Notes under the pieces: generated by a model | Databases searched by the model: none | Seen by the model: only the letters and a program-made list of their open reading frames with translations | Told to the model about the DNA's origin: nothing | Shown: positions 9,282 to 19,682 of the stretch, piece by piece | Layout: every line of letters starts with the position of its first letter | Position numbering within the stretch: the first letter of the stretch is position 1 | Position numbers and translations under genes: made by a program | Source: a bacterium | Lineage (GTDB): Bacteria; Patescibacteriota; Minisyncoccia; Phycocordibacterales; UBA918 | Direction of reading: 5' to 3' | Assembly: GCA_043719295.1 (NCBI GenBank) | Contig: JAYSUD010000001.1 | Location: forward strand, 97,700-161,699 | DNA length: 64,000 nt

Positions 9282-9354
9282 GGGCCAATAGCTCATTTGG
9301 TAGAGCGCTTCACTTGCACTGAAGAGGCGGGGGGTTCGAATCCTCTTTGGTCCA
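9282..9354 (+). tRNA. tRNA-Ala (anticodon UGC)
   Basis: Manual cloverleaf fold. Acceptor GGGCCAA/TTGGTCC with the G3:U70 alanine identity pair. D-arm GCTC-ATTTGGTA-GAGC. Anticodon stem CTTCA/TGAAG with loop CTTGCAC. T-arm GGGGG-TTCGAAT-CCTCT (two G:U pairs). Discriminator A; CCA not encoded. Confidence 0.85.
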
Positions 9355-9421
9355 CAAACTGTAGGGCTCAAATGCGAATGCATTTGAGCCCTTTACAGTT
9401 TGCGACCAAAGAGGATTCGAA
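9335..9421. repeat. ~87-nt near-perfect palindrome whose left arm is the T-loop/acceptor 3' half of tRNA-Ala
   Basis: Left arm TTCGAATCCTCTTTGGTCCACAAACTGTAGGGCTCAAATGC; loop GAAT; right arm GCATTTGAGCCCTTTACAGTTTGCGACCAAAGAGGATTCGAA. About 38 bp of pairing with one small internal loop. Confidence 0.8.
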
Positions 9422-9564
9422 AGACGCAAGCCGGGGCCCCTCTGGGAGCGGCGGTAAAACAGTATCGGAATACTGTTTTACGGGTCGAGAGTACTTACTA
9501 GAATTGGAGCGAAGCGAACAATTATAGTTAAATAAAACTTTCTGGGAGATAGTTTTATCGTGAC

Positions 9565-9584
9565 CGATTCCTCTTTGGTCCACA
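9565..9584 (+). repeat. Direct repeat of the tRNA-Ala 3' end (candidate attR-like site)
   Basis: CGATTCCTCTTTGGTCCACA versus the tRNA 3' end CGAATCCTCTTTGGTCCACA (9337..9356): 19/20 identical, 228 bp apart. Region 9420..9730 is rich in GC hairpins (AAAACAGTAT-CGGA-ATACTGTTTT; GGGCTTC...GAAGCCC). Confidence 0.7.
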
Positions 9585-9805
9585 CCTTACTTCAAGTAAA
9601 AATATAAAACGATAGCCCTCAAAAGTGGGCTTCCTCAGAGGCCGAAGCCCTAATGCATTTATAATATTCTCAAGTAGATCGGAGTCAAGATATCGTACTG
9701 TGCTTAAATACCCAAAAACTCACCAATAACCGTGAAAAACTACAAAACTTCGTCTTTTTTCACGATTATCATTGACATAATCGTGAAAATTACTATAATA
9801 TTGAT

Positions 9806-10693
9806 ATGTCACGTATACCAAAAACGCATACTGCTATATTGTCGCTCCGTGAGCGGTTTTACAAAGCATTGCCTGGTAAAGAATCTTTACTCCAAATCAT
9901 TAATGAAATTGAAGTATCTGAGCATGTATACAACTCAAACGCCATAGAAAATAGTACGCTAACTTTAGAAGAAACTGAAAAAATTCTTCAGGAGATTGAT
10001 CTATCTCGATATGTGAGTGAAAGAGAATTATTTGAAGCAAAAAACTTAGCTCTGGTAATGAAGTATATAGAAAAGAAGGCTAAAGTGACTGATCCGTCAA
10101 AAGATGTGCTTCTCCTCCTTCATAAAATGTTGCTAGGTAATATTAAGGAAGATATTGCAGGTCGATTTCGGATGCCAACTGAATGGGTGAAAGTCGGAAA
10201 TTATATAGCTGCAAACCCAGCTGATGTCACAAAATTACTTGATTCGATGTTAATTTGCCTACAAACAAACAATCAGGAAAATATCATAAAACGAATTGCA
10301 GAACTTCATCTCACCTTTGAACACATTCACCCATTTTGCGACGGCAATGGTCGAATTGGACGAGTGCTCAACAACTTCATTTTGCTAAAAGAAGGGTATG
10401 TTCCAATTAATATCGCATTTGCTAATAGAGCTGATTATTATGCAGCGTTCAGAAAATTTGATGCTGATGGTGATGTAAGTCTGATGGAAGTAATTGTAGG
10501 TCGTGCATTAACAAACAGTTATCATAAACGACTTGCGTATCTTGAGGGTAAAAAAATTGTGACGTTAAATGAATTTGCAAAAAGCCACAAGCTCTCCATT
10601 TCGAATTTAATCAATAAAGCTCATCGCCAAACAGTTGAAGCTTTTATTGAAAAGGGTGTCTGGAAAATTGCTGATTCATACAAAGTAAAATAA
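9806..10693 (+). CDS. Fic family protein (AMPylation/adenylyltransferase domain)
   Basis: Canonical Fic motif HPFCDGNGRIGR (HxFx[DE]GNGRxxR). Confidence 0.85.
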   Translation: MSRIPKTHTAILSLRERFYKALPGKESLLQIINEIEVSEHVYNSNAIENSTLTLEETEKILQEIDLSRYVSERELFEAKNLALVMKYIEKKAKVTDPSKDVLLLLHKMLLGNIKEDIAGRFRMPTEWVKVGNYIAANPADVTKLLDSMLICLQTNNQENIIKRIAELHLTFEHIHPFCDGNGRIGRVLNNFILLKEGYVPINIAFANRADYYAAFRKFDADGDVSLMEVIVGRALTNSYHKRLAYLEGKKIVTLNEFAKSHKLSISNLINKAHRQTVEAFIEKGVWKIADSYKVK

Positions 10694-10722
10694 TCTTTAC
10701 CAACCTTGGTAGCTTCCATCAT

Positions 10723-11016
10723 ATGCCCCTCCAACAAACACTTATTTTCATCTTAATCCTCATAAACACTATCTCATTCTTTGTAGTAGCAAACGACAAA
10801 CGGAAGGCAATGCAGAGAGGTGACTCCGAACGCATCCCTGAAGGGCTAATCTTCTTCCTAGCTACTGCCTTCGGCAGTATTGGTGTATACGCCAGCATGC
10901 TCATATTCCGCCACAAAACCCGCAAATGGTACTTTCAGGTGGGTATTCCACTCCTAATTTTGCAAAATATAGCATTGCTGTATCTCATCAATGCTTATTT
11001 TGCATTGTATGTTTAG
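10723..11016 (+). CDS. DUF1294-like small membrane protein
   Basis: 97 aa, three TM segments. A paralogous C-terminal fragment lies at 12102..12266 (FGSIGVYASMLIFRHKTRKWYFQVGIPLLILQN). Confidence 0.55.
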   Translation: MPLQQTLIFILILINTISFFVVANDKRKAMQRGDSERIPEGLIFFLATAFGSIGVYASMLIFRHKTRKWYFQVGIPLLILQNIALLYLINAYFALYV

Positions 11017-11046
11017 TGATTATTTAACTGTAGTATACTGAGCATT

Positions 11047-12048
11047 ATGACTGATCATCCAAAAAACTCACAAATTGTAATTTACAAAACTCCTACTGGT
11101 GAGACTAAAATTGATGTCCGGTTTGATGGTGCTACTGTATGGCTCAGTCTTGAACAAATGGCTGAGTTATTCGGTAAAGCAAAATCAACTATAAACGAGC
11201 ATGTTCTCAATATTTTTACTGAAGGTGAGCTCAAAGAATCCTTAGTTTTACAGAAAATCGGAAATTCCGATTTTCTTGAAAAACCAACAAATTACTACAA
11301 TCTTGATGTCATTATTTCAGTTGGGTATAGGGTAAAGTCACTTCAAGGTACTAGATTTCGACAATGGGCGACAGAGAGACTTTCTGAGTATATTGTAAAA
11401 GGCTTTGTTATTGATAGTGAGCGATTAAAAAATCCAGATGTTCCCTTTGATTATTTCGAAGAATTAGAGCGAACAATTGCTGACATTCGTTCGAGTGAAA
11501 AGAGGTTTTATCGAAAGATAACTGATATTTATGCCACCAGCGTTGATTATGATCCAACTAATGACCATAGTCTACTTTTTTTTAAAACAGTACAAAATAA
11601 AGTTCACTTTGCTATAACTGGTAATACAGCTGCAGAAATCGTCGTCGACAGGATAGACGAGCAAAAACCAAATCTTGGTTTAACCTACACGAGAGGTGTA
11701 AAACCAACAAAAGAAGAAATTTCAATCGCAAAAAATTATTATTCGCAAGAAGAGTTGCTTCAACTCAATGCTTTAGTAGAACAATACTTAGTTTTCGCCA
11801 CAGAACAAGCTCGGCGACGGGTATCGATGACTATGCAGGATTGGATAGATAAATTACATGGTTTTCTGAATCTTAACGAACGGGACATTTTAACCGACGC
11901 TGGAAAAATCTCTCATGAAATGATGATTGAAATTACGAATGAAAAGTTTGATCATTATAAAACTAGACAATCAACTATAGATACTGAGTTTGATGATACA
12001 GTGCTTAAAGTACTAGAACAGATCGGTAAAGATGCTTCAAGTAAATAA
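11047..12048 (+). CDS. Virulence-protein RhuM family protein (COG3943/DinD-like)
   Basis: N-terminal RhuM signature: IVIYKTPTGETKIDVRFDGATVWLSLEQMAELFGK...NEHVLNIFTEGEL...NLDVIISVGYRVKSLQGTRFRQWATERL. Confidence 0.8.
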   Translation: MTDHPKNSQIVIYKTPTGETKIDVRFDGATVWLSLEQMAELFGKAKSTINEHVLNIFTEGELKESLVLQKIGNSDFLEKPTNYYNLDVIISVGYRVKSLQGTRFRQWATERLSEYIVKGFVIDSERLKNPDVPFDYFEELERTIADIRSSEKRFYRKITDIYATSVDYDPTNDHSLLFFKTVQNKVHFAITGNTAAEIVVDRIDEQKPNLGLTYTRGVKPTKEEISIAKNYYSQEELLQLNALVEQYLVFATEQARRRVSMTMQDWIDKLHGFLNLNERDILTDAGKISHEMMIEITNEKFDHYKTRQSTIDTEFDDTVLKVLEQIGKDASSK

Positions 12049-12101
12049 CAAGACAAACGCATATCTACATCCCCCAGCAGCCTAAAACGCACCTAGACAC
12101 A

Positions 12102-12266
12102 CCATTCTTCATGGCCGCCGCCTTCGGCGCCATAGGTGTCTACACCGCCATACTCTTCTTCCGCCACAAAACAAGAAAGTGGTACTTTCAAATAGGGATT
12201 CCGCTCCTTATTATCCAGAACTTAGCCGCCGCCTACACCACATGGCAATTTGTCTTTATAAATTGA
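12102..12266 (+). pseudogene. GC-rich fragment (C-terminal ~55 codons) of a second DUF1294 gene
   Basis: Translation PFFMAAAFGAIGVYTAILFFRHKTRKWYFQIGIPLLIIQNLAAAYTTWQFVFIN* aligns to the C-terminus of the 10723..11016 protein. No plausible N-terminus. Codons are strongly GC3-rich (gccgccgccttcggcgcc), unlike the AT-rich host. Confidence 0.6.
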
Positions 12267-12298
12267 GAAAACAGGGCTTAAGTGCTACTCTTTAAGTA

Positions 12299-14686
12299 AT
12301 GAATCTCTACGAAACGCTCCAGCTTGCCAAAAGTGAGGAAGATGTGAAAGATGCGTACATAAAAGCGCTTGGGCTTAAGACTTTTTCTAAAGGTCTTATT
12401 GATATTCAAACAAAAGAAATTTGGTTTGAAGCAAAAGATAAAAGCAACACTACTACATACAAGATGCTCACGCAGCTCTTGCACTATGTGAAGCAATGGA
12501 TGGAACACGGTGAAGAGATTCCGCCATTTTTGTGTGCGATTGATACCGAAAAAGCAGCAATCATGAAAACTGCAGACGCACTGCCACTGTTTGAACGGAA
12601 GGACATCAAGTGGGGAAAGTCTGCAAGTGACGTTACTCCTGAAGCGCTTGAGGCTGTCTCAACATTTATTGGTACACGTTTTGTCTCCTACCGCATCGCA
12701 ACCCACGAACAGGAGTTTATTGATGCAGTAAAAACAGCAATTAAAAACGGCGACATCATCCGTACTGAAATCAAACCAGCAAACATCAAGTCTGTTTTCG
12801 ACAAGTGGGTAGACATGATTGGAAAAGAGATTGGTGACGTTGCGCCAGAGAAGTACGCACTCCTTTTCTTTGCCGACATCATGCATGACGGCACAGTTTC
12901 AACACATAAAGACCTTCCTGCAGAACTCTTGTACAAAGACGGACAACCTGTGTTTCTTCTTGAGGGTAAACTCTATGAACTTGGGAACAAAGAAGGGTAC
13001 CGTCAGTTCTGGGCAATCTACCATAAACCACCACGAGAAGAGCACCGAAACGCAATGCTCGAACGACGTGACACACTCATTCCGTACGACGAACGGAGTT
13101 TTAAAGGTGCCTACTACACCCCACTTCACGTAGTGGATAAAGCGTACGACAAACTCACTGAAACGCTGGGTGACAATTGGCAAGATGAGTACATTGTGTG
13201 GGATATGTGTTGCGGAGTGGGGAACCTCGAAGTTAAACACTCAAACCACCGTAACCTTTACATGTCGACACTCGACCAAGCAGACATCGACGTAATGAAA
13301 GCAACAAAAACCTGCGCAGCTGCAGAACGTTTTCAATATGACTATTTAAATGATGATATTACTGACGATGGAAAGATTGACTACTCACTTACAAATAAAG
13401 TTCCTGCGGGACTTCGCAAAGCAATAGCCGATGGCAAGAAAATTCTAGTGCTCATAAACCCACCATATGCGGAAGCTGGTGAGGGTATTGGAGAAGGAAA
13501 TAAAGAAAAAGTTGCTAAGACAAAGTTCTCAGCTACTGCAATGGAAAACTGGGGGAAAGCAAGTAATGAATTATTTACGCAATTCGTAGCTCGCATTTCA
13601 CAAGAAATACCAACTGCAACTCTCGCAATGTTCAGTAAATTAAAATATGTTAATGCACCTAATTTTGAAAAATTTAGACAAGCATGGAATTCGGAATACT
13701 TAGATGGATTTATTGTCCATAGTAAAGCATTTGATGGTCTAAAAGGACTATTTCCAATTGGTTTCCTTATCTGGAAAACATATCCTGATTCAAAAGATAA
13801 ATTCGAAATAACTGAAGTTACAACTGATGTTTTAGATAAATATGCTTTACCAATTGGAGCAAAGAAATTCTATAATTTACCCAATGACGCTTTTTTAAAC
13901 AAGTGGTTAGATAGACCAAAACCAAACACTACAGAAGTAGTACCTTTAAAAAACACAGTGTCAGTATCAACTGCTCAAAACACTGTAACTCTTTCAAAAT
14001 GGTCAGATGGGGCAGTTGGGTATTTTTTCTGTGACAGCAATGACTTCCAAAATGCAGCACAGTCAACAGTATTACTTTCTTCTACATATTTTAAAGGGCA
14101 TGGCTTTTATATAACTGAAGATAACTTATGGCAGTCATCGATAATCTTTTCAGTGCGTCGCTTAATTAAACCAACTTGGCAAAACGATCGTGATCAATTC
14201 TTACAACCAACAGGTGAGCTCACTGACGAATTCAAAAATGATTGTCTTATATGGATACTATTTAATGGAAGTAACTTAACAGCAAGTGCAAATGACCTTG
14301 AATGGAACGACAAAAAGTGGTCAATTGTAAATCATTTTATTCCGTACACTGAAAGTGAAGTTGGAGCGCCAGGACGTTTTGAAAGTGACTTTATGGTGGG
14401 GTACATGAAAGACAAAGTGTTTTCAGAGAAAGCACAGGCGGTACTCGCAGATGGGAAGAAGCTTTGGAGTGCATACTTTGAACACACCGACCCACACACC
14501 GTCCGCGAAGAACTCAAGCTCAACCGCCCCGACGTCGGCTGGTACCAAATCCGCAACGCGCTGAAGCGCCGCAACGAAAGTGGCGACTACAACCCCATCT
14601 CATTCACCGAGTTTGAAACCACCTACAAACTCCTCACCGAAAAACTCCGTCCCCAAGTGTATAGTCTTGGTTTCCTAAAAGAATAA
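12299..14686 (+). CDS. Type IIG/IIL restriction-modification enzyme, MmeI-like (fused PD-(D/E)xK endonuclease, N6-adenine methyltransferase and target-recognition domain)
   Basis: N-terminal nuclease motif IDIQTKEIWFEAKDK (D...ExK). gamma-class N6-MTase motifs FKGAYYTPLHVVD (motif I/X region) and LINPPY (motif IV, NPPY). 795 aa, a single polypeptide with no separate S or R gene. Confidence 0.7.
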   Translation: MNLYETLQLAKSEEDVKDAYIKALGLKTFSKGLIDIQTKEIWFEAKDKSNTTTYKMLTQLLHYVKQWMEHGEEIPPFLCAIDTEKAAIMKTADALPLFERKDIKWGKSASDVTPEALEAVSTFIGTRFVSYRIATHEQEFIDAVKTAIKNGDIIRTEIKPANIKSVFDKWVDMIGKEIGDVAPEKYALLFFADIMHDGTVSTHKDLPAELLYKDGQPVFLLEGKLYELGNKEGYRQFWAIYHKPPREEHRNAMLERRDTLIPYDERSFKGAYYTPLHVVDKAYDKLTETLGDNWQDEYIVWDMCCGVGNLEVKHSNHRNLYMSTLDQADIDVMKATKTCAAAERFQYDYLNDDITDDGKIDYSLTNKVPAGLRKAIADGKKILVLINPPYAEAGEGIGEGNKEKVAKTKFSATAMENWGKASNELFTQFVARISQEIPTATLAMFSKLKYVNAPNFEKFRQAWNSEYLDGFIVHSKAFDGLKGLFPIGFLIWKTYPDSKDKFEITEVTTDVLDKYALPIGAKKFYNLPNDAFLNKWLDRPKPNTTEVVPLKNTVSVSTAQNTVTLSKWSDGAVGYFFCDSNDFQNAAQSTVLLSSTYFKGHGFYITEDNLWQSSIIFSVRRLIKPTWQNDRDQFLQPTGELTDEFKNDCLIWILFNGSNLTASANDLEWNDKKWSIVNHFIPYTESEVGAPGRFESDFMVGYMKDKVFSEKAQAVLADGKKLWSAYFEHTDPHTVREELKLNRPDVGWYQIRNALKRRNESGDYNPISFTEFETTYKLLTEKLRPQVYSLGFLKE

Positions 14687-14726
14687 CTTAGTTGACTGCA
14701 AAAATACTAGGCGTATATTATAGAAG

Positions 14727-15053
14727 ATGACAATCTCAAAAAATACACCTCTAAAAGGACAGTTTCGACATATTGTATTTAAAGACAAAGGTGTTTGGTA
14801 TGCAGTTGCACTTGAATTTAATATTGTCGAATCTAGTGATGATCCACGATTGGCGTACTTCAACCTACTACAAGCTGTTGACGGGTATATTGCTGCTATG
14901 CGGAAAATTAAGGGTGCTCGTAATTTCTCGCCCCTCAATCAGCCACCAGCGAAAGAGTACCAAGAGCTGTGGAATCAATTGAATTCTAATAAACCAGTAA
15001 AATCACCTTATCAAGTAAACTCTTTTGGAGTTTCTTCAACTACACATGCCTAA
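14727..15053 (+). CDS. hicB: HicB-like antitoxin (UPF0150/DUF1902 RNase H-like fold)
   Basis: 108 aa; VWYAVALEFNIVESSDDPRLAYFNLLQAVDGYIAA resembles the HicB N-domain. Overlaps the HicA gene immediately downstream. Confidence 0.45.
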   Translation: MTISKNTPLKGQFRHIVFKDKGVWYAVALEFNIVESSDDPRLAYFNLLQAVDGYIAAMRKIKGARNFSPLNQPPAKEYQELWNQLNSNKPVKSPYQVNSFGVSSTTHA

Positions 15054-15273
15054 GAAGTTGCATAATTGGAAGTTTAGAGAGGTTGAGCGTTTTTTAAAGA
15101 ATAATGACTTTGTACTCCATCACACAAATGGTAGTCATTACTATTACATTGGCAACAGTGAGCATCTTGTATGCGTTCCATATCACGGAAGTATTGCAAT
15201 TAAAACACGCACTATGAAAGGAGTAATCACACAATCAGGTATTTCACAAAATGATTGGCTAAAAGATACGTAA
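15046..15273 (+). CDS. hicA: HicA family mRNA interferase toxin
   Basis: MPKKLHNWKFREVERFLKNNDFVLHHTNGSHYYY: YcfA/HicA fold with the GSH motif. Start taken at MPKK; the listed ORF has an 8-codon upstream extension. Confidence 0.65.
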   Translation: MPKKLHNWKFREVERFLKNNDFVLHHTNGSHYYYIGNSEHLVCVPYHGSIAIKTRTMKGVITQSGISQNDWLKDT

Positions 15274-15405
15274 ACTGTACACTTTAAATATAGCTAATAA
15301 GGAAACTCGCAATGCATTTGTTGTAGGAATGTCAGAAGATGACGCAATTGCTCAGATTTCAATGAGTAAGTAGCTTATTTCTGTAAACTTACTGAACTTT
15401 GAAAT

Positions 15406-15446
15406 AATAAATCCCCTAAGTTTATGCTTCTAGGGGATTTATTTGT
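15406..15446. terminator. Bidirectional intrinsic terminator
   Basis: AAATAAATCCCCTAAG-loop-CTAGGGGATTTATTTG, a perfect stem flanked by A/T runs, between the hicA 3' end (+) and the small minus-strand gene. Confidence 0.6.
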
Positions 15447-15447
15447 T

Positions 15448-15570
15448 TTACTTCTTATCTCGTCTCTGTCGAAGAGCAGAAGCAGCTGCTGTTTTTGAGT
15501 TCTTACCAGTACTACCACTTTTCAGTACTTTTGAAGCAGCTTTACCGGCTTTCTTTGATGTTTTTGCCAT
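15448..15570 (-). CDS. Small basic 40-aa protein (unannotated short ORF)
   Basis: MAKTSKKAGKAASKVLKSGSTGKNSKTAAASALRQRRDKK; ATG 15568..15570, TAA 15448..15450. Terminator hairpin immediately 3'. Below the ORF-track size cut-off. Confidence 0.35.
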   Translation of the reverse strand: MAKTSKKAGKAASKVLKSGSTGKNSKTAAASALRQRRDKK

Positions 15571-15705
15571 TGTTTAAACACACGTTTACATCAGTCGACT
15601 TCCACCTTATGTGGCCTGATATTTTCATTATATCACACGCTGACAAGTTAACACTATACACAGTAAACTTGTAAAGATTCAAAAAAAGAGTAGTATACTG
15701 TTCTT

Positions 15706-16431
15706 ATGACTACTTGGATACAAAACAAACGTCAATCAGTAGGTTTATCTCAAACTGAAGTTGCAGAAAGTTTGGGTATTTCTCGACCGACGTATATAAA
15801 ACTTGAACGGGGGATTGCTGAACCTACAGAACACCAGAAGGCAATTCTTGCGAGTCTTTTTGATGTATCACGGGAGACTGTGACAAAAAAATCACTAGAG
15901 ACAGTGGGAGTTTCAAATGCAGTCTATGTAAAGGAAGTGCCTAAGGAGAACGTACAAAAGTTTGAGCAGGTATTACTCTATATAGTGAGTAAAGTGGGAA
16001 GTCGCCCAAATATTGGTCAGACTGCACTCTATAAACTGCTGTATTTTATTGATTTTGATTATTACGAAAAGTATCAGGAATATTTGATTGGCGCTGTGTA
16101 CATTAAAAACACTCATGGTCCAAGTCCTGTGTCGTTTGCTAAGATTGCGCGTAACCTAGAGACGTCGGGGAAACTTGTGTTGGTGCAGAGTAAATACTTT
16201 GGATTTGACCAGAAAAAGTATCTAGTAACCAGCGATACGGTAGTTTCTTATTTAAGTGCGCAGGAGCTTAAACATATTGACGATGAACTAGAACGACTTG
16301 CTTCAAAAAGCGCAAAGGAGCTTTCTGACCTATCACACATTGATACTCCATGGCGTGTTGCAAAGGAAAAGCAAGTTTTAAATTATCGTCATGCATTCTA
16401 TCGACCCGATGAAACTTCTGTAGTTGAATAA
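15706..16431 (+). CDS. XRE-family HTH / Panacea (DUF4065, SocA-like) domain antitoxin
   Basis: N-terminal HTH QSVGLSQTEVAESLGISRPTYIKLERG. C-terminal DUF4065-like core GQTALYKLLYFIDFDYYEKYQEYLIGAVYIKNTHGPSPVSF. Confidence 0.65.
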   Translation: MTTWIQNKRQSVGLSQTEVAESLGISRPTYIKLERGIAEPTEHQKAILASLFDVSRETVTKKSLETVGVSNAVYVKEVPKENVQKFEQVLLYIVSKVGSRPNIGQTALYKLLYFIDFDYYEKYQEYLIGAVYIKNTHGPSPVSFAKIARNLETSGKLVLVQSKYFGFDQKKYLVTSDTVVSYLSAQELKHIDDELERLASKSAKELSDLSHIDTPWRVAKEKQVLNYRHAFYRPDETSVVE

Positions 16432-16777
16432 ATTGTCTATGAGTATGTTTTCAGTGTTGCCAGAATTTGAGAAAGAATTAAAAAAGCTTTCAAAAAAATA
16501 TCCAACATTGCCTTCTGATATTGAAGACATTAAACCTATCCTTGAAGAGACTAAAACAGGAATTGGAAAAAATTTTACGATTATTGCAACTGCTAAAGAT
16601 GTTCAGATTGTAAAAGTGCGAATTTTGTGTGAATCACTCCGCTCAAGAACAGTGCGACTTATCTACGCGTACCATAAAAACAAAATTGAGTTTATGTATA
16701 TCGAGATATATTTTAAAGGTGATACAGAGAATGAAGATAAATCTAGAATTAAAGAATATTTAGAAGGACTCAGTTAG
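16424..16777 (+). CDS. RelE/ParE-superfamily-like toxin (putative partner of the Panacea antitoxin)
   Basis: Overlaps the upstream gene by 8 nt. FEKELKKLSKKYPTLPSDIEDI...RTVRLIYAYHKNKIEFMYIEIYFKGD resembles the RelE/StbE pattern F.K.LKKL...YRiIY...I.Il.Ig.R.D. Confidence 0.45.
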   Translation: MNKLSMSMFSVLPEFEKELKKLSKKYPTLPSDIEDIKPILEETKTGIGKNFTIIATAKDVQIVKVRILCESLRSRTVRLIYAYHKNKIEFMYIEIYFKGDTENEDKSRIKEYLEGLS

Positions 16778-16850
16778 AATGCAACAAATCAACTGCTAAA
16801 ATATAATATACAGGTCTAGTCTCTCTAAGTGTGAAGAAAATAACATAAAA

Positions 16851-17381
16851 CTATTTTTTCACCCCAACAAACTCGTTCAGCATTGCTAAGTATTGATCGG
16901 TGACTTTTTTAGGGATTTTAGGGTGAGTAAATGGTTTGATTACTCCTTTGTTCTTAATGATGGTGTCTACTTGATCAAAATAGAACCCCTGTGGTGTAGC
17001 GATAAATAATGCAGCGTTACGCCATGAACGTTCTATCTCTTTTGCTATTGCGTTCACTTTGCCGTTGGTACGAGTAGCCATGTACTTTATTTCTACAAGT
17101 GTCACATTGTGATTTTCTTCATTTACAATGGCATAGTCGGGAGCTTTACGAACAATCTCTATCATTGCCCGAGCGTCTGCACTTTGTTTCGCTTTTGCAA
17201 GTTGATGTACTACTTTTTCATACCCAAATTCTAGAACGGTATATCCTTTAGTGTTGTGAATCATTTGTTCAAATATAATTTCTGCAATTTTCCCCTTAAT
17301 AAGCTCGTGTGTAAATTTTATGTTGTTCATATACGGTAAGTATACTCCCGACTTCAGACTGGTAATGATACGAATCCCCAC
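16851..17381 (-). CDS. Hypothetical small PD-(D/E)xK nuclease-like protein
   Basis: Ordered motifs E(F)GYE ... APDYAIV ... LVEIKY (PD-x12-ExK). Divergently arranged from the RhuM-Doc gene. An alternative start MNNIKF at 17330 is possible. Confidence 0.4.
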   Translation of the reverse strand: MGIRIITSLKSGVYLPYMNNIKFTHELIKGKIAEIIFEQMIHNTKGYTVLEFGYEKVVHQLAKAKQSADARAMIEIVRKAPDYAIVNEENHNVTLVEIKYMATRTNGKVNAIAKEIERSWRNAALFIATPQGFYFDQVDTIIKNKGVIKPFTHPKIPKKVTDQYLAMLNEFVGVKK

Positions 17382-17406
17382 GTCCTTATCGTGCTACCAT
17401 TAACTC

Positions 17407-18414
17407 ATGATAAAAAAATCTACCAAAACCGAATTGGTTATTTTTAAGGGAAGTAAGGGGCAGGTTAAGCTTCGAGGAGATTTTCATAATGATACGTTGT
17501 GGGCGACACAAGCCGAGATTGCTGAATTATTCGATGTGGATGTTCGAACAATAAATGAGCACCTCAAGAATATCTACCGTACTGAAGAACTGTCAAAAAA
17601 AGCAACTATCCGGAATTTCCGGATAGTTAAAACAGAAGGAAATCGAAACGTCGAGCGTGATGTTTTTCACTATAATTTGGATGCAATAATTTCAACTGGA
17701 TATCGTGTAAATAGCAAAAAAGCTACTCAATTCCGCCAATGGGCAACAAATGTTGTAAAGTTACATATTACTGATGGCTTCACCATCAACAAAAGCCGTA
17801 TCGCCACCAACTATGAGGACTTTATGAAGGCAGTTACCCTTGTAAAGAATCTTGCTCCAAAGAGGAGTAATGTCGATACAGAATCGGTTCTTGAACTTGT
17901 ACAGCTTTTTGCTGACACGTGGTTCTCCCTTGATGCGTATGATAAAGAAGCGCTTGCTCCGGGAAAGGTTAATAAAAAGAAAGTTAAACTGACTTCTGTA
18001 GAATTCTTGGAAAATGTGACTGTACTCAAAGGCGAGCTCATACGAAAAGGAGAAGCTACAGAAAACTTTGCTTTAGAACGCAATCGTGAAGCAGTTGAGG
18101 GTATTATCGGTAACGTGATGCAGAGCTTTGGTGGGAAAGAAGTGTACCCGACAATAGAAGAGAAAGCGGCACACTTGATGTACTTTATCATCAAGAATCA
18201 TCCGTTTGTTGATGGTAACAAACGTACGGGTGCCTATGCATTAGTCTGGTTCTTGCAAAAGATGAAAGTGCTTGATATACATCGTCTATCGCCAACTGCA
18301 CTTACGGCACTCACACTCCTTGTAGCGGAAAGTAATCCAAAAGACAAAGAAAAAGTGGTAGCACTTGTGGTCTTACTGATAGCAGGACCAATACAGAAAA
18401 ATCGGAAGAAGTAA
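17407..18414 (+). CDS. RhuM N-terminal domain fused to a C-terminal Doc/Fic toxin domain
   Basis: N-terminal LWATQAEIAELFDVDVRTINEHLKNIYRTEEL...NLDAIISTGYRVNSKKATQFRQWATN aligns to the RhuM at 11047. C-terminal HPFVDGNKRTG matches the Doc motif HxFx(D/N)GNKR. Confidence 0.75.
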   Translation: MIKKSTKTELVIFKGSKGQVKLRGDFHNDTLWATQAEIAELFDVDVRTINEHLKNIYRTEELSKKATIRNFRIVKTEGNRNVERDVFHYNLDAIISTGYRVNSKKATQFRQWATNVVKLHITDGFTINKSRIATNYEDFMKAVTLVKNLAPKRSNVDTESVLELVQLFADTWFSLDAYDKEALAPGKVNKKKVKLTSVEFLENVTVLKGELIRKGEATENFALERNREAVEGIIGNVMQSFGGKEVYPTIEEKAAHLMYFIIKNHPFVDGNKRTGAYALVWFLQKMKVLDIHRLSPTALTALTLLVAESNPKDKEKVVALVVLLIAGPIQKNRKK

Positions 18415-18415
18415 C

Positions 18416-19027
18416 ATGTTCCCAAAAAGCTCAAATGAATACAAACTACTTTCTAAACTCAATACACCTCAAAAGGTGCAGACTTTCTTGGAATCTATTC
18501 CCTTTAACCATGAGGAAAATGGGATGACGTGCAGGTCGGGGTATCTCGCTTTAAAAGAGAATAAGGCACACTGTATCGAAGGAGCGTTTATTGGAGCTTT
18601 TGCATTACACTTGCAAGGCAGAGATGCAACACTTGTGAGTTTAAAAGTGAAGAAACCTGATGATGATCACGTTATTGTACTTTTTAAAGAAAACGGTTTC
18701 TACGGAGCGTTAAGCAAAACAAACCACCCCGTGCTTCGCTATCGCGATCCTGTGTACAAAACAGTTCGTGAACTCGTTATGTCGTACTTTCATGAGTATT
18801 TTTTATATACAAATGGAAAGAAAACACTTCAAGGCTACACTAAGCCCATTAACTTAAAGCGCTATGGCACAAAATGGATAACAGGAGAAGAAGATGTGTG
18901 GGAGATTGGAAACGATATTTATAATCTACCAATAATCACCATCGTTCCTGACGCAAACAAACACCTCCTTCGTAACGCAACTCAATTTGAACGTACTTCA
19001 CTTGATGTGCAAGAGTGGAAGCAATAA
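18416..19027 (+). CDS. Hypothetical protein co-transcribed with the RhuM-Doc gene (Cys/His/Asp, papain-like or transglutaminase-like?)
   Basis: ATG 2 nt after the Doc gene stop. Conserved-looking order GMTCRSGYLAL ... DDDHVIVLF ... D, compatible with a Cys-His-Asp triad. Fold is unassigned. Confidence 0.4.
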   Translation: MFPKSSNEYKLLSKLNTPQKVQTFLESIPFNHEENGMTCRSGYLALKENKAHCIEGAFIGAFALHLQGRDATLVSLKVKKPDDDHVIVLFKENGFYGALSKTNHPVLRYRDPVYKTVRELVMSYFHEYFLYTNGKKTLQGYTKPINLKRYGTKWITGEEDVWEIGNDIYNLPIITIVPDANKHLLRNATQFERTSLDVQEWKQ

Positions 19028-19651: not shown

Positions 19652-19682
19652 GTGCTCCTGCAATTTGGCAGGAGCATTTTTG
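19652..19682 (+). terminator. Intrinsic terminator
   Basis: TGCTCCTGC-AATTTG-GCAGGAGCA followed by TTTTT. Confidence 0.6.

Follow-up and report, generated by a model that had tools for sequence, protein, structure and literature searches.

CPR-C4 is a highly conserved protein of the candidate phyla radiation (CPR) with a transglutaminase-like, vasohibin-like fold; the Icelandic CPR-C4 displayed measurable protease activity on BODIPY-casein, carries a non-canonical triad made of Cys61, His93 and the backbone carbonyl of Leu115, and is unrelated to its genomic neighbours (Cornish et al., J Biol Chem 2022, PMC9108980). Here we analyse a stretch of 64,000 nucleotides (the window: positions 97,700 to 161,699 of contig JAYSUD010000001.1) from a Kaiserbacteria-like CPR bacterium, in which a gene of this family directly follows a gene for a RhuM-Doc protein that is itself divergent from a gene for a small protein with a nuclease fold. 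A preliminary description of this DNA had suggested that these three genes may be a single unit of nuclease, RhuM-Doc and putative peptidase, analogous to multi-component abortive-infection systems.

Doc of phage P1, the closest reference for the second half of the RhuM-Doc protein, is the toxin of the Phd-Doc type II toxin-antitoxin (TA) pair, has the Fic fold and is a kinase of EF-Tu. The full two-domain architecture is catalogued in PADLOC as PDC-S23, a candidate system only, and a literature search found no paper naming it. The only studied protein of this architecture that the search brought up was BifA of Streptococcus equi subsp. zooepidemicus, examined as a virulence factor acting on host cells (PMC6529018). 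Genes of the RhuM family are, according to the literature, enriched near restriction-modification (RM) and inversion loci.

Set against these systems, the locus probably holds three functionally independent, stand-alone genes that have become neighbours at the border of an island, and we see no three-part system here because each gene normally occurs without the others. Two of the three are of known kinds, and the third belongs to a small family that is new, though its fold is very well known. The predicted genes, their downstream neighbour and the spacer between the divergent pair are as follows.

16851 to 17381, minus strand: nuclease-fold open reading frame (ORF), the longest ORF, 176 amino acids (aa) from GTG 17381
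16851 to 17330, minus strand: likely extent of the nuclease gene, 159 aa from ATG 17330
17331 to 17406, no strand: divergent spacer between the nuclease gene and RhuM-Doc, 76 bp (25 bp if GTG 17381 is used)
17407 to 18414, plus strand: RhuM-Doc, 335 aa
18416 to 19027, plus strand: CPR-C4-family cysteine protease, 203 aa
19098 to 19622, plus strand: DoxX-family membrane protein gene (Pfam DoxX, 4e-10)

The three ORFs from which the preliminary description had started (16851..17381, 17407..18414 and 18416..19027) are present at these coordinates and lengths, and the peptides that it had singled out, APDYAIV, LVEIKY, GMTCRSGYLAL and DDDHVIVLF, all occur in their translations.

The three genes do not co-occur across diverse loci

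Three samples bear on whether the genes belong together: 80 CPR-C4 loci, each of another GTDB species, taken with flanks of up to 8 kb per side as far as the contig reached; 13 metagenomic RhuM-Doc loci at 40-77% identity; and seven further lineages of the nuclease family. By tblastn, RhuM-Doc was adjacent to CPR-C4 in none of the 80 loci and the nuclease family was near CPR-C4 in none of them, the nearest exceptions being one RhuM 3.7 kb away and one Doc-like sequence ~3 kb away. A six-frame scan of these loci for the Fic/Doc motif returned a single match in 1.09 Mb, 3.1 kb from CPR-C4, and none within 2.5 kb of it, and DoxX was found in none of the 80. When the three nearest ORFs per side were clustered, the largest neighbour cluster of CPR-C4 covered only 7 of 72 loci; CPR-C4 is without a conserved neighbour.

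The reciprocal tests gave the same picture. No CPR-C4 gene was present in any of the 13 RhuM-Doc loci. RhuM-Doc is followed there by an RNase H-like gene, by a gene for a DinB-like polymerase, by an ORF that is convergent or unrelated, or by nothing co-directional at all. Likewise, neither RhuM-Doc nor CPR-C4 lay near the nuclease gene in any of the seven further lineages, and the neighbours of the nuclease differed in every lineage sampled, including NrtR with HATPase, Dcm and type I RM genes; Zeta toxin with AAA_21, SLFN-helicase-S24 and MazG; HTH-Ymh-HsdR; transposase and resolvase; and housekeeping genes. The preliminary description had named beforehand two observations that would speak against its three-gene unit, namely a lack of co-occurrence of the genes elsewhere and a lack of conservation of the motifs in homologue alignments. 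The first is what we observed, with conserved co-occurrence lacking in diverse loci from all three directions (0/80, 0/13 and 0/7). The second was not seen for the nuclease-fold protein, whose residues E17, P64-D65 and E80-x-K82 are invariant.

RhuM-Doc has a known single-polypeptide architecture

The middle gene had been read as an N-terminal RhuM domain joined to Fic/Doc, and Pfam and TIGR01550 agree with that assignment. Its predicted product is composed as follows.

~aa 1-135, plus strand: N-terminal RhuM-family domain (Pfam Virulence_RhuM, 5e-23)
~aa 200-320, plus strand: C-terminal Doc-type Fic domain (Pfam Fic, 3e-13)
18199 to 18225, plus strand: HPFVDGNKR motif, the Doc-type variant of the Fic motif

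The match to TIGR01550 (DOC_P1) reached 43.6 bits against a cutoff of 38.65, the motif conforms to the Doc-type pattern HxFx(D/N)(A/G)NKR, and HPFxDGNKR is kept in 13 of the 13 metagenomic relatives. The PDC-S23 model of PADLOC (PDLC04965) matched over its full length, with residues 7-326 aligned to model positions 4-324 of 327 at 1.2e-106, and by this measure the predicted protein is an instance of that known single-polypeptide architecture. Full-length homologues are carried on plasmids of Legionella, Vibrio, Pseudomonas, Shewanella and Aeromonas, where the Prokaryotic Genome Annotation Pipeline (PGAP) labels them "virulence protein RhuM/Fic/DOC family protein" and where they are solitary among transposases and hypothetical genes.

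With P1 Doc the protein shares the HxFxDGNKR motif and a TIGR01550 score above the cutoff; unlike P1 Doc, its Doc domain sits behind a RhuM domain of ~135 aa and a linker, and it comes without a Phd gene. No Phd-type antitoxin gene was found upstream of RhuM-Doc, where the 76-bp spacer is followed by the divergent nuclease gene, and no conserved small partner gene was detected in the 13 relatives. With BifA and PDC-S23 it shares the two-domain architecture and the location on islands and plasmids; a virulence role on host cells such as that of BifA is irrelevant for a CPR episymbiont. Because of the motif and the lack of a conserved partner, we favour a self-contained mechanism in which RhuM-Doc would act as a toxin or candidate defence protein within one polypeptide. 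By analogy with P1 Doc, the Doc domain would phosphorylate EF-Tu and thereby halt translation, and the RhuM domain would regulate or sense in cis, either restraining or triggering Doc.

The 203-aa protein belongs to the CPR-C4 protease family

The suggestion that the 203-aa ORF encodes a papain-like or transglutaminase-like protein was well founded, as it is a homologue of the solved CPR-C4, a vasohibin/transglutaminase-like cysteine protease. A phmmer search against the PDB entries 7OB6, 7OB7 and 7PJO gave an E value of 9.6e-47 over residues 6-202 of 203, and this alignment places the predicted protein in the CPR-C4 (CP01A) family of cysteine proteases, as a member of orthologue grade. The predicted triad maps onto the following codons.

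18572 to 18574, plus strand: C53 (in KAHCIEG), corresponding to C61 of CPR-C4
18668 to 18670, plus strand: H85 (in DDDHVIV), corresponding to H93 of CPR-C4
18734 to 18736, plus strand: L107, backbone carbonyl (in HPVLRY), corresponding to L115 of CPR-C4

All three residues are invariant in 36 homologues at 55-81% identity. Of the triad guessed in the preliminary description the histidine stands, H85 being the one in DDDHVIV, but the cysteine proposed there, C39, has to give way to C53, and in place of an acidic third member we find the carbonyl of L107. C39 (in GMTCRSG) was rejected as the nucleophile since it is Trp in the crystallised CPR-C4 and only ~90% conserved in the subfamily, as opposed to the invariant C53.

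The predicted protease resembles CPR-C4 in triad positions, in size and in its stand-alone status without conserved neighbours. Unlike CPR-C4, it has Ser75 at the position of the first zinc-binding aspartate, its source is not known to be thermophilic and its gene abuts RhuM-Doc. In the alignment of the zinc site D83 is replaced by S75 and D92 corresponds to D84, with the third position falling into a gapped region; the tri-aspartate site of CPR-C4 (D83, D92, D182) is not a family requirement (PMC9108980). The same study described the pocket of CPR-C4 as positively charged and reported that vasohibins have the unusual CPR-C4-type triad (PMC9108980). On the basis of its sequence, the 203-aa protein would be a cysteine protease acting through C53, H85 and L107, with a substrate that is probably acidic.

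Secondary PDB matches, weak ones, were to human vasohibin-1 and -2, and a faint vasohibin signal surrounded the His-Leu region (Pfam Vasohibin, E 0.05, sub-threshold; VASH1 in the PDB, E ~0.1). Human VASH1 and VASH2 are tubulin detyrosinating carboxypeptidases and transglutaminase-like cysteine proteases; the CPR-C4 type differs from them in having neither an SVBP-type partner nor a tubulin substrate, and the similarity is remote. The CPR-C4 family comprises more than 3100 homologue clusters and is a widespread CPR gene. Many of the metagenome-assembled genome records that carry it (L011-L090) are titled Saccharibacteria, Bdellovibrionales, Chthoniobacter, Nanoarchaeota, Woesearchaeota or Methanosarcinales, so that either the family reaches beyond Paceibacteria or the labels or bins are unreliable.

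The 159-aa protein represents an uncatalogued PD-(D/E)xK family

For the small divergent gene the preliminary description had proposed a PD-(D/E)xK-like protein, a guess that both the fold and the intact catalytic residues support. Numbered from ATG 17330, these residues are located as follows.

17280 to 17282, minus strand: catalytic-type residue E17
17136 to 17141, minus strand: catalytic-type residues P64-D65
17091 to 17093, minus strand: catalytic-type residue E80
17085 to 17087, minus strand: catalytic-type residue K82

Across 37 sequences with identity down to 35%, we observed that E17, Q22, G36-Y37-E38, P64-D65, E80-x-K82 and W103 are invariant, so that at the level of sequence the predicted nuclease motif is far beyond chance. 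The AlphaFold2 model of the 159-aa protein is confident (pLDDT, the per-residue confidence, 88.3; pTM, the predicted template modelling score, 0.83) and places D65 just ahead of strand 2 and E80 and K82 on strand 3. It has the alpha-beta-beta-beta-alpha-beta core fold of the PD-(D/E)xK superfamily, with the glutamate in helix 1, the aspartate at the start of strand 2 and (D/E)xK on strand 3, and the positions of E17, D65, E80 and K82 agree with the predicted secondary structure. The closest structural relatives of the model, with their similarity scores, are as follows.

archaeal Hjc (1gef): 9.6
homing endonuclease I-Ssp6803I: 9.0
Hje: 8.6
R2 restriction-like endonuclease domain: 8.6
Cas4-like SSO0001: 8.4

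Restriction enzymes form a long tail of relatives below SSO0001. Compared with Hjc/Hje and I-Ssp6803I, which belong to the same superfamily, the protein is only 14-17% identical and carries three additions: two helices inserted between strands 1 and 2, a C-terminal extension and the invariant G-Y-E motif. None of the 37 members matched the Hjc family (Pfam PF01870) at E<=1, and the likeness to Hjc suggested by the model is one of fold only.

Searches with the small protein returned nothing above threshold in Pfam, NCBIfam, PHROGs and PADLOC; the recurrent sub-threshold matches of the family were TnsA_N, VRR_NUC and UPF0102, all of one clan, and single-sequence and profile searches of the PDB gave noise only (thermosome, SdeA). 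The family comprises 126 homologue clusters at 90% identity, and an exhaustive profile search of 1.84 billion representatives recovered 804 proteins with E<=1e-3, of which 78 had E<=1e-30; nearly all are stand-alone proteins of about 155-165 aa. We place the predicted 159-aa protein, the sole new item of the locus, in an unnamed and uncatalogued PD-(D/E)xK family, as sequence conservation and the structural model suggest. Given the residues and fold observed, it would be a metal (Mg)-dependent endonuclease that may cut DNA, probably in a structure- or site-specific manner and acting alone. A viral origin of the family was rejected, as no relative was found in the viral contigs of IMG/VR.

Two further observations concern the distribution of this family. 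Between organisms the nuclease is 78-89% identical, with neighbour genes that are only 46-77% identical or not common to both (L001-L010, L105, L109, L110). The nuclease gene also lies within ~3 kb of RM, TA, abortive-infection-like or transposase/recombinase genes in most of 9 lineages (6 clear, 2 arguable), a tally made without a control.

Gene starts and predicted transcription

The divergent intergenic region, put at 25 bp in the preliminary description, is better taken as 76 bp, with the nuclease gene most likely starting at ATG 17330 and encoding 159 aa. We assign this start because homologues are mostly 156-161 aa long and begin with MNNIKF or its equivalent (120 clusters among the matches listed), and because the N-terminal extension from GTG 17381 is not conserved in the related locus L091; GTG 17381 was rejected on the same two grounds. 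Promoter-like sites in the 76-bp spacer were not above chance in a scan (10 observed, 8.5+-3.1 expected).

On the other side, the close junction noted between Doc and the 203-aa ORF is real: the Doc stop codon TAA occupies 18412-18414 and is separated by one base from ATG 18416. A terminator scan revealed no terminator-like hairpin between the plus-strand genes RhuM-Doc, CPR-C4 and DoxX, the first good one on that strand lying at 19652-19677. Because of the 1-nt junction and the lack of a terminator before 19652, the three plus-strand genes are predicted to share one transcript, probably with DoxX as the last gene. Gaps of <=4 bp to the upstream same-strand gene were found for CPR-C4 in 6 of 45 loci, which makes such tight junctions ordinary in these compact genomes. 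We read the predicted co-transcription as a product of gene packing, or of insertion beside a resident gene, in a recombination-prone region and not as the sign of a common mechanism.

Close relatives share parts of the arrangement

Parts of the arrangement recur in a few close relatives. In locus L111, RhuM-Doc (78% identity) is followed by CPR-C4 (80%) across TAG-C-ATG, with the 1-nt gap that the window also has, and the gene downstream of CPR-C4 differs. Nucleotide identity between the window and L111 is 76.8% and runs contiguously across the RhuM-Doc/CPR-C4 junction, which argues for a single inherited arrangement. In L091/L092, which represent one organism, the nuclease gene (85%) is divergent from RhuM-Doc (72%) across a spacer of 308 bp that holds a DUF1294 fragment, and an RNase H-like gene rather than CPR-C4 is found downstream of RhuM-Doc. 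L112 keeps the flanks of the window, namely the Panacea antitoxin (90%), its 117-aa partner (81%) and CPR-C4 (76%), with a DUF1294 gene at the place of the nuclease and RhuM-Doc and a canonical Fic gene after CPR-C4, and L113 has CPR-C4 (72%) after a Band_7 gene and beside a ribosomal protein operon. Each pairing recurs in one close relative only, at ~72-85% amino-acid identity and with contiguous nucleotide homology to the window, consistent with one inherited arrangement in each case and not with independent co-occurrence. DUF1294, the nuclease, RhuM-Doc, CPR-C4 and p213 appear to have been rearranged from one close relative to another, in a region prone to recombination, and we do not count their varying adjacency as evidence of functional linkage.

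Several of these facts nonetheless weigh against the independence of the three genes. The stop-C-ATG junction recurs in L111 though the downstream gene is another one, the divergent nuclease/RhuM-Doc pair recurs in L091/L092 with other flanks, and nuclease and RhuM-Doc are absent as a block from L112, all of which is compatible with a lineage-specific coupling or with a two-gene cassette; moreover, the sampling of close relatives is thin, with mostly short contigs, and the functions of all three proteins in this organism are predicted ones. A lineage-specific module of RhuM-Doc and CPR-C4, likened to a protease-controlled toxin or to a TA system with a third component, is in our judgement very unlikely. 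In such a module the protease would be translationally coupled to the toxin and would either process it, freeing RhuM from Doc, or neutralise it, which would suit the 1-nt junction kept between the window and L111 despite the differing downstream gene, the lack of a terminator between both genes, the lack of a Phd-like antitoxin gene upstream of RhuM-Doc and the presence of a different Fic gene directly 3' of CPR-C4 in L112. The contiguous identity of 76.8%, however, reduces the kept junction to one ancestral event, and the pairing is missing from all 80 CPR-C4 and all 13 RhuM-Doc loci; the CPR-C4 relatives of L112 (76%) and L113 (72%) are without RhuM-Doc as well. In addition, RhuM-Doc stands alone on plasmids, the CPR-C4 family far exceeds RhuM-Doc in size and in breadth of distribution in CPR, and tight junctions are common in these genomes. 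CPR-C4 as an antitoxin acting on Doc in trans was rejected, since both families are almost always apart.

It is also very unlikely that the nuclease and RhuM-Doc make up a mobile cassette of two divergent genes, for example a toxin with a nuclease effector or a homing-type nuclease, that inserts into the island as a block. The pair does occur in two contexts, between the 117-aa toxin candidate (tox117) and CPR-C4 in the window and between p213 and the RNase H-like gene in L091/L092, and both genes are missing together from L112, which has the flanks of the window. Yet seven other nuclease lineages lack RhuM-Doc and ten other RhuM-Doc loci lack the nuclease, among them L093 with the same synteny as L091; the spacers of 76 and 308 bp and the DUF1294 remnant in L091 suggest rearrangement and not a fixed cassette, no flanking repeats or recombinase were seen, and the nuclease family is absent from the IMG/VR viral contig collection. 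The three-gene, abortive-infection-like system of nuclease, RhuM-Doc sensor/toxin and peptidase we regard as exceedingly improbable: the genes are adjacent inside a defence/TA island and all have plausible effector or sensor chemistry, but every pairwise association fails across diverse loci, and among the sampled loci the triad is shown in the window only, the L111 sequence being cut off inside RhuM-Doc, short of the place where a nuclease gene would lie. That either the nuclease family is tied to island borders or the RhuM-Doc/CPR-C4 junction reflects a real coupling in this clade seems unlikely to us; in the former case the nuclease would be no bystander but a part of the variable defence/TA islands in Kaiserbacteria-like CPR genomes, for instance as an anchor or a recombination-promoting nuclease at their borders. 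Were the coupling true, it would provide the first physiological handle on CPR-C4, a protease without a substrate.

Three independent genes thus remain our preferred reading, a clean negative that strikes a tempting three-component abortive-infection system off the list. In return, two "hypothetical" genes receive identities, one as a member of the CPR-C4 family and the other as a member of an uncatalogued, well-defined PD-(D/E)xK family. As by-products, 80 species-level loci independently confirm the lack of any conserved genomic partner of CPR-C4, whose role is therefore not readable from gene context, and we obtain a map of a tRNA-Ala-linked toxin/defence island in a CPR genome, with cargo that changes from relative to relative.

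Position at the border of a toxin/defence island

The nuclease, RhuM-Doc and CPR-C4 genes are situated at the right edge of this ~9-kb island (window 9282-18414), which further comprises the following features.

9282 to 9355, plus strand: tRNA-Ala(TGC), left border of the island
9806 to 10693, plus strand: canonical Fic (HPFCDGNGR)
10723 to 11016, plus strand: DUF1294
11047 to 12048, plus strand: solo RhuM
12111 to 12266, plus strand: DUF1294 fragment, 51-aa ORF
12299 to 14686, plus strand: NPPY methyltransferase-like protein, 795 aa, no family
14727 to 15273, plus strand: HicB-like/HicA pair (HicA Pfam, 2e-10)
15706 to 16777, plus strand: HTH-Panacea (SocA) antitoxin and overlapping 117-aa partner, a TA module

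The genes left of the tRNA, up to 8497, are of the housekeeping kind (UvrA, UvrC, a UDP-glucose dehydrogenase fragment, Ddl and pterin dehydratase), and no shift in guanine-plus-cytosine content marks the island. In L105, DUF1294 and the nuclease bracket other cargo (MazG-like, SLFN-helicase-S24 and AAA_21), and since this differs from the window, we regard the stretch between DUF1294 and the nuclease as a variable defence/TA hotspot.

A direct repeat of 122 nt with 75% identity (10852-10973 and 12105-12226) brackets the solo RhuM gene at 11047-12048. Both copies go back to the 3' part of DUF1294, the second being the 51-aa fragment ORF, and the repeat looks like an insertion scar or a duplication at DUF1294. 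Whole or fragmentary copies of this gene also adjoin RhuM-Doc in L091, L093 and L096 and CPR-C4 in L112.

The 795-aa protein has the NPPY motif LINPPYAEAG and weak matches to type II/Alw26I-family adenine methyltransferases (E ~4e-4 to 6e-4), with no family found in Pfam, and may represent an uncharacterised methyltransferase, either stand-alone or type IIG-like. In the Panacea module, the antitoxin (241 aa, HTH_3 plus SocA/Panacea) overlaps the gene of the 117-aa protein, for which the only match, a weak one, was phrog_5869; the pair is also found in L112 (19-881) at 90% and 81%, and because of this conservation the 117-aa protein is likely the uncharacterised toxin of a Panacea-type TA module. 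A 108-aa ORF without a family overlaps the start of the 82-aa HicA gene and is a probable divergent HicB-type antitoxin. The canonical, AMPylase-type Fic protein (290-295 aa) is a recurrent member of these islands in related genomes, being present in the window (9806-10693), in L112 (2358-3230) and in L099 (2122-2994), and combines HPFCDGNGR with an N-terminal motif, SNAIENS, that resembles an inhibitory helix; its gene adjoins CPR-C4 in L112 and lies near RhuM-Doc in L099.

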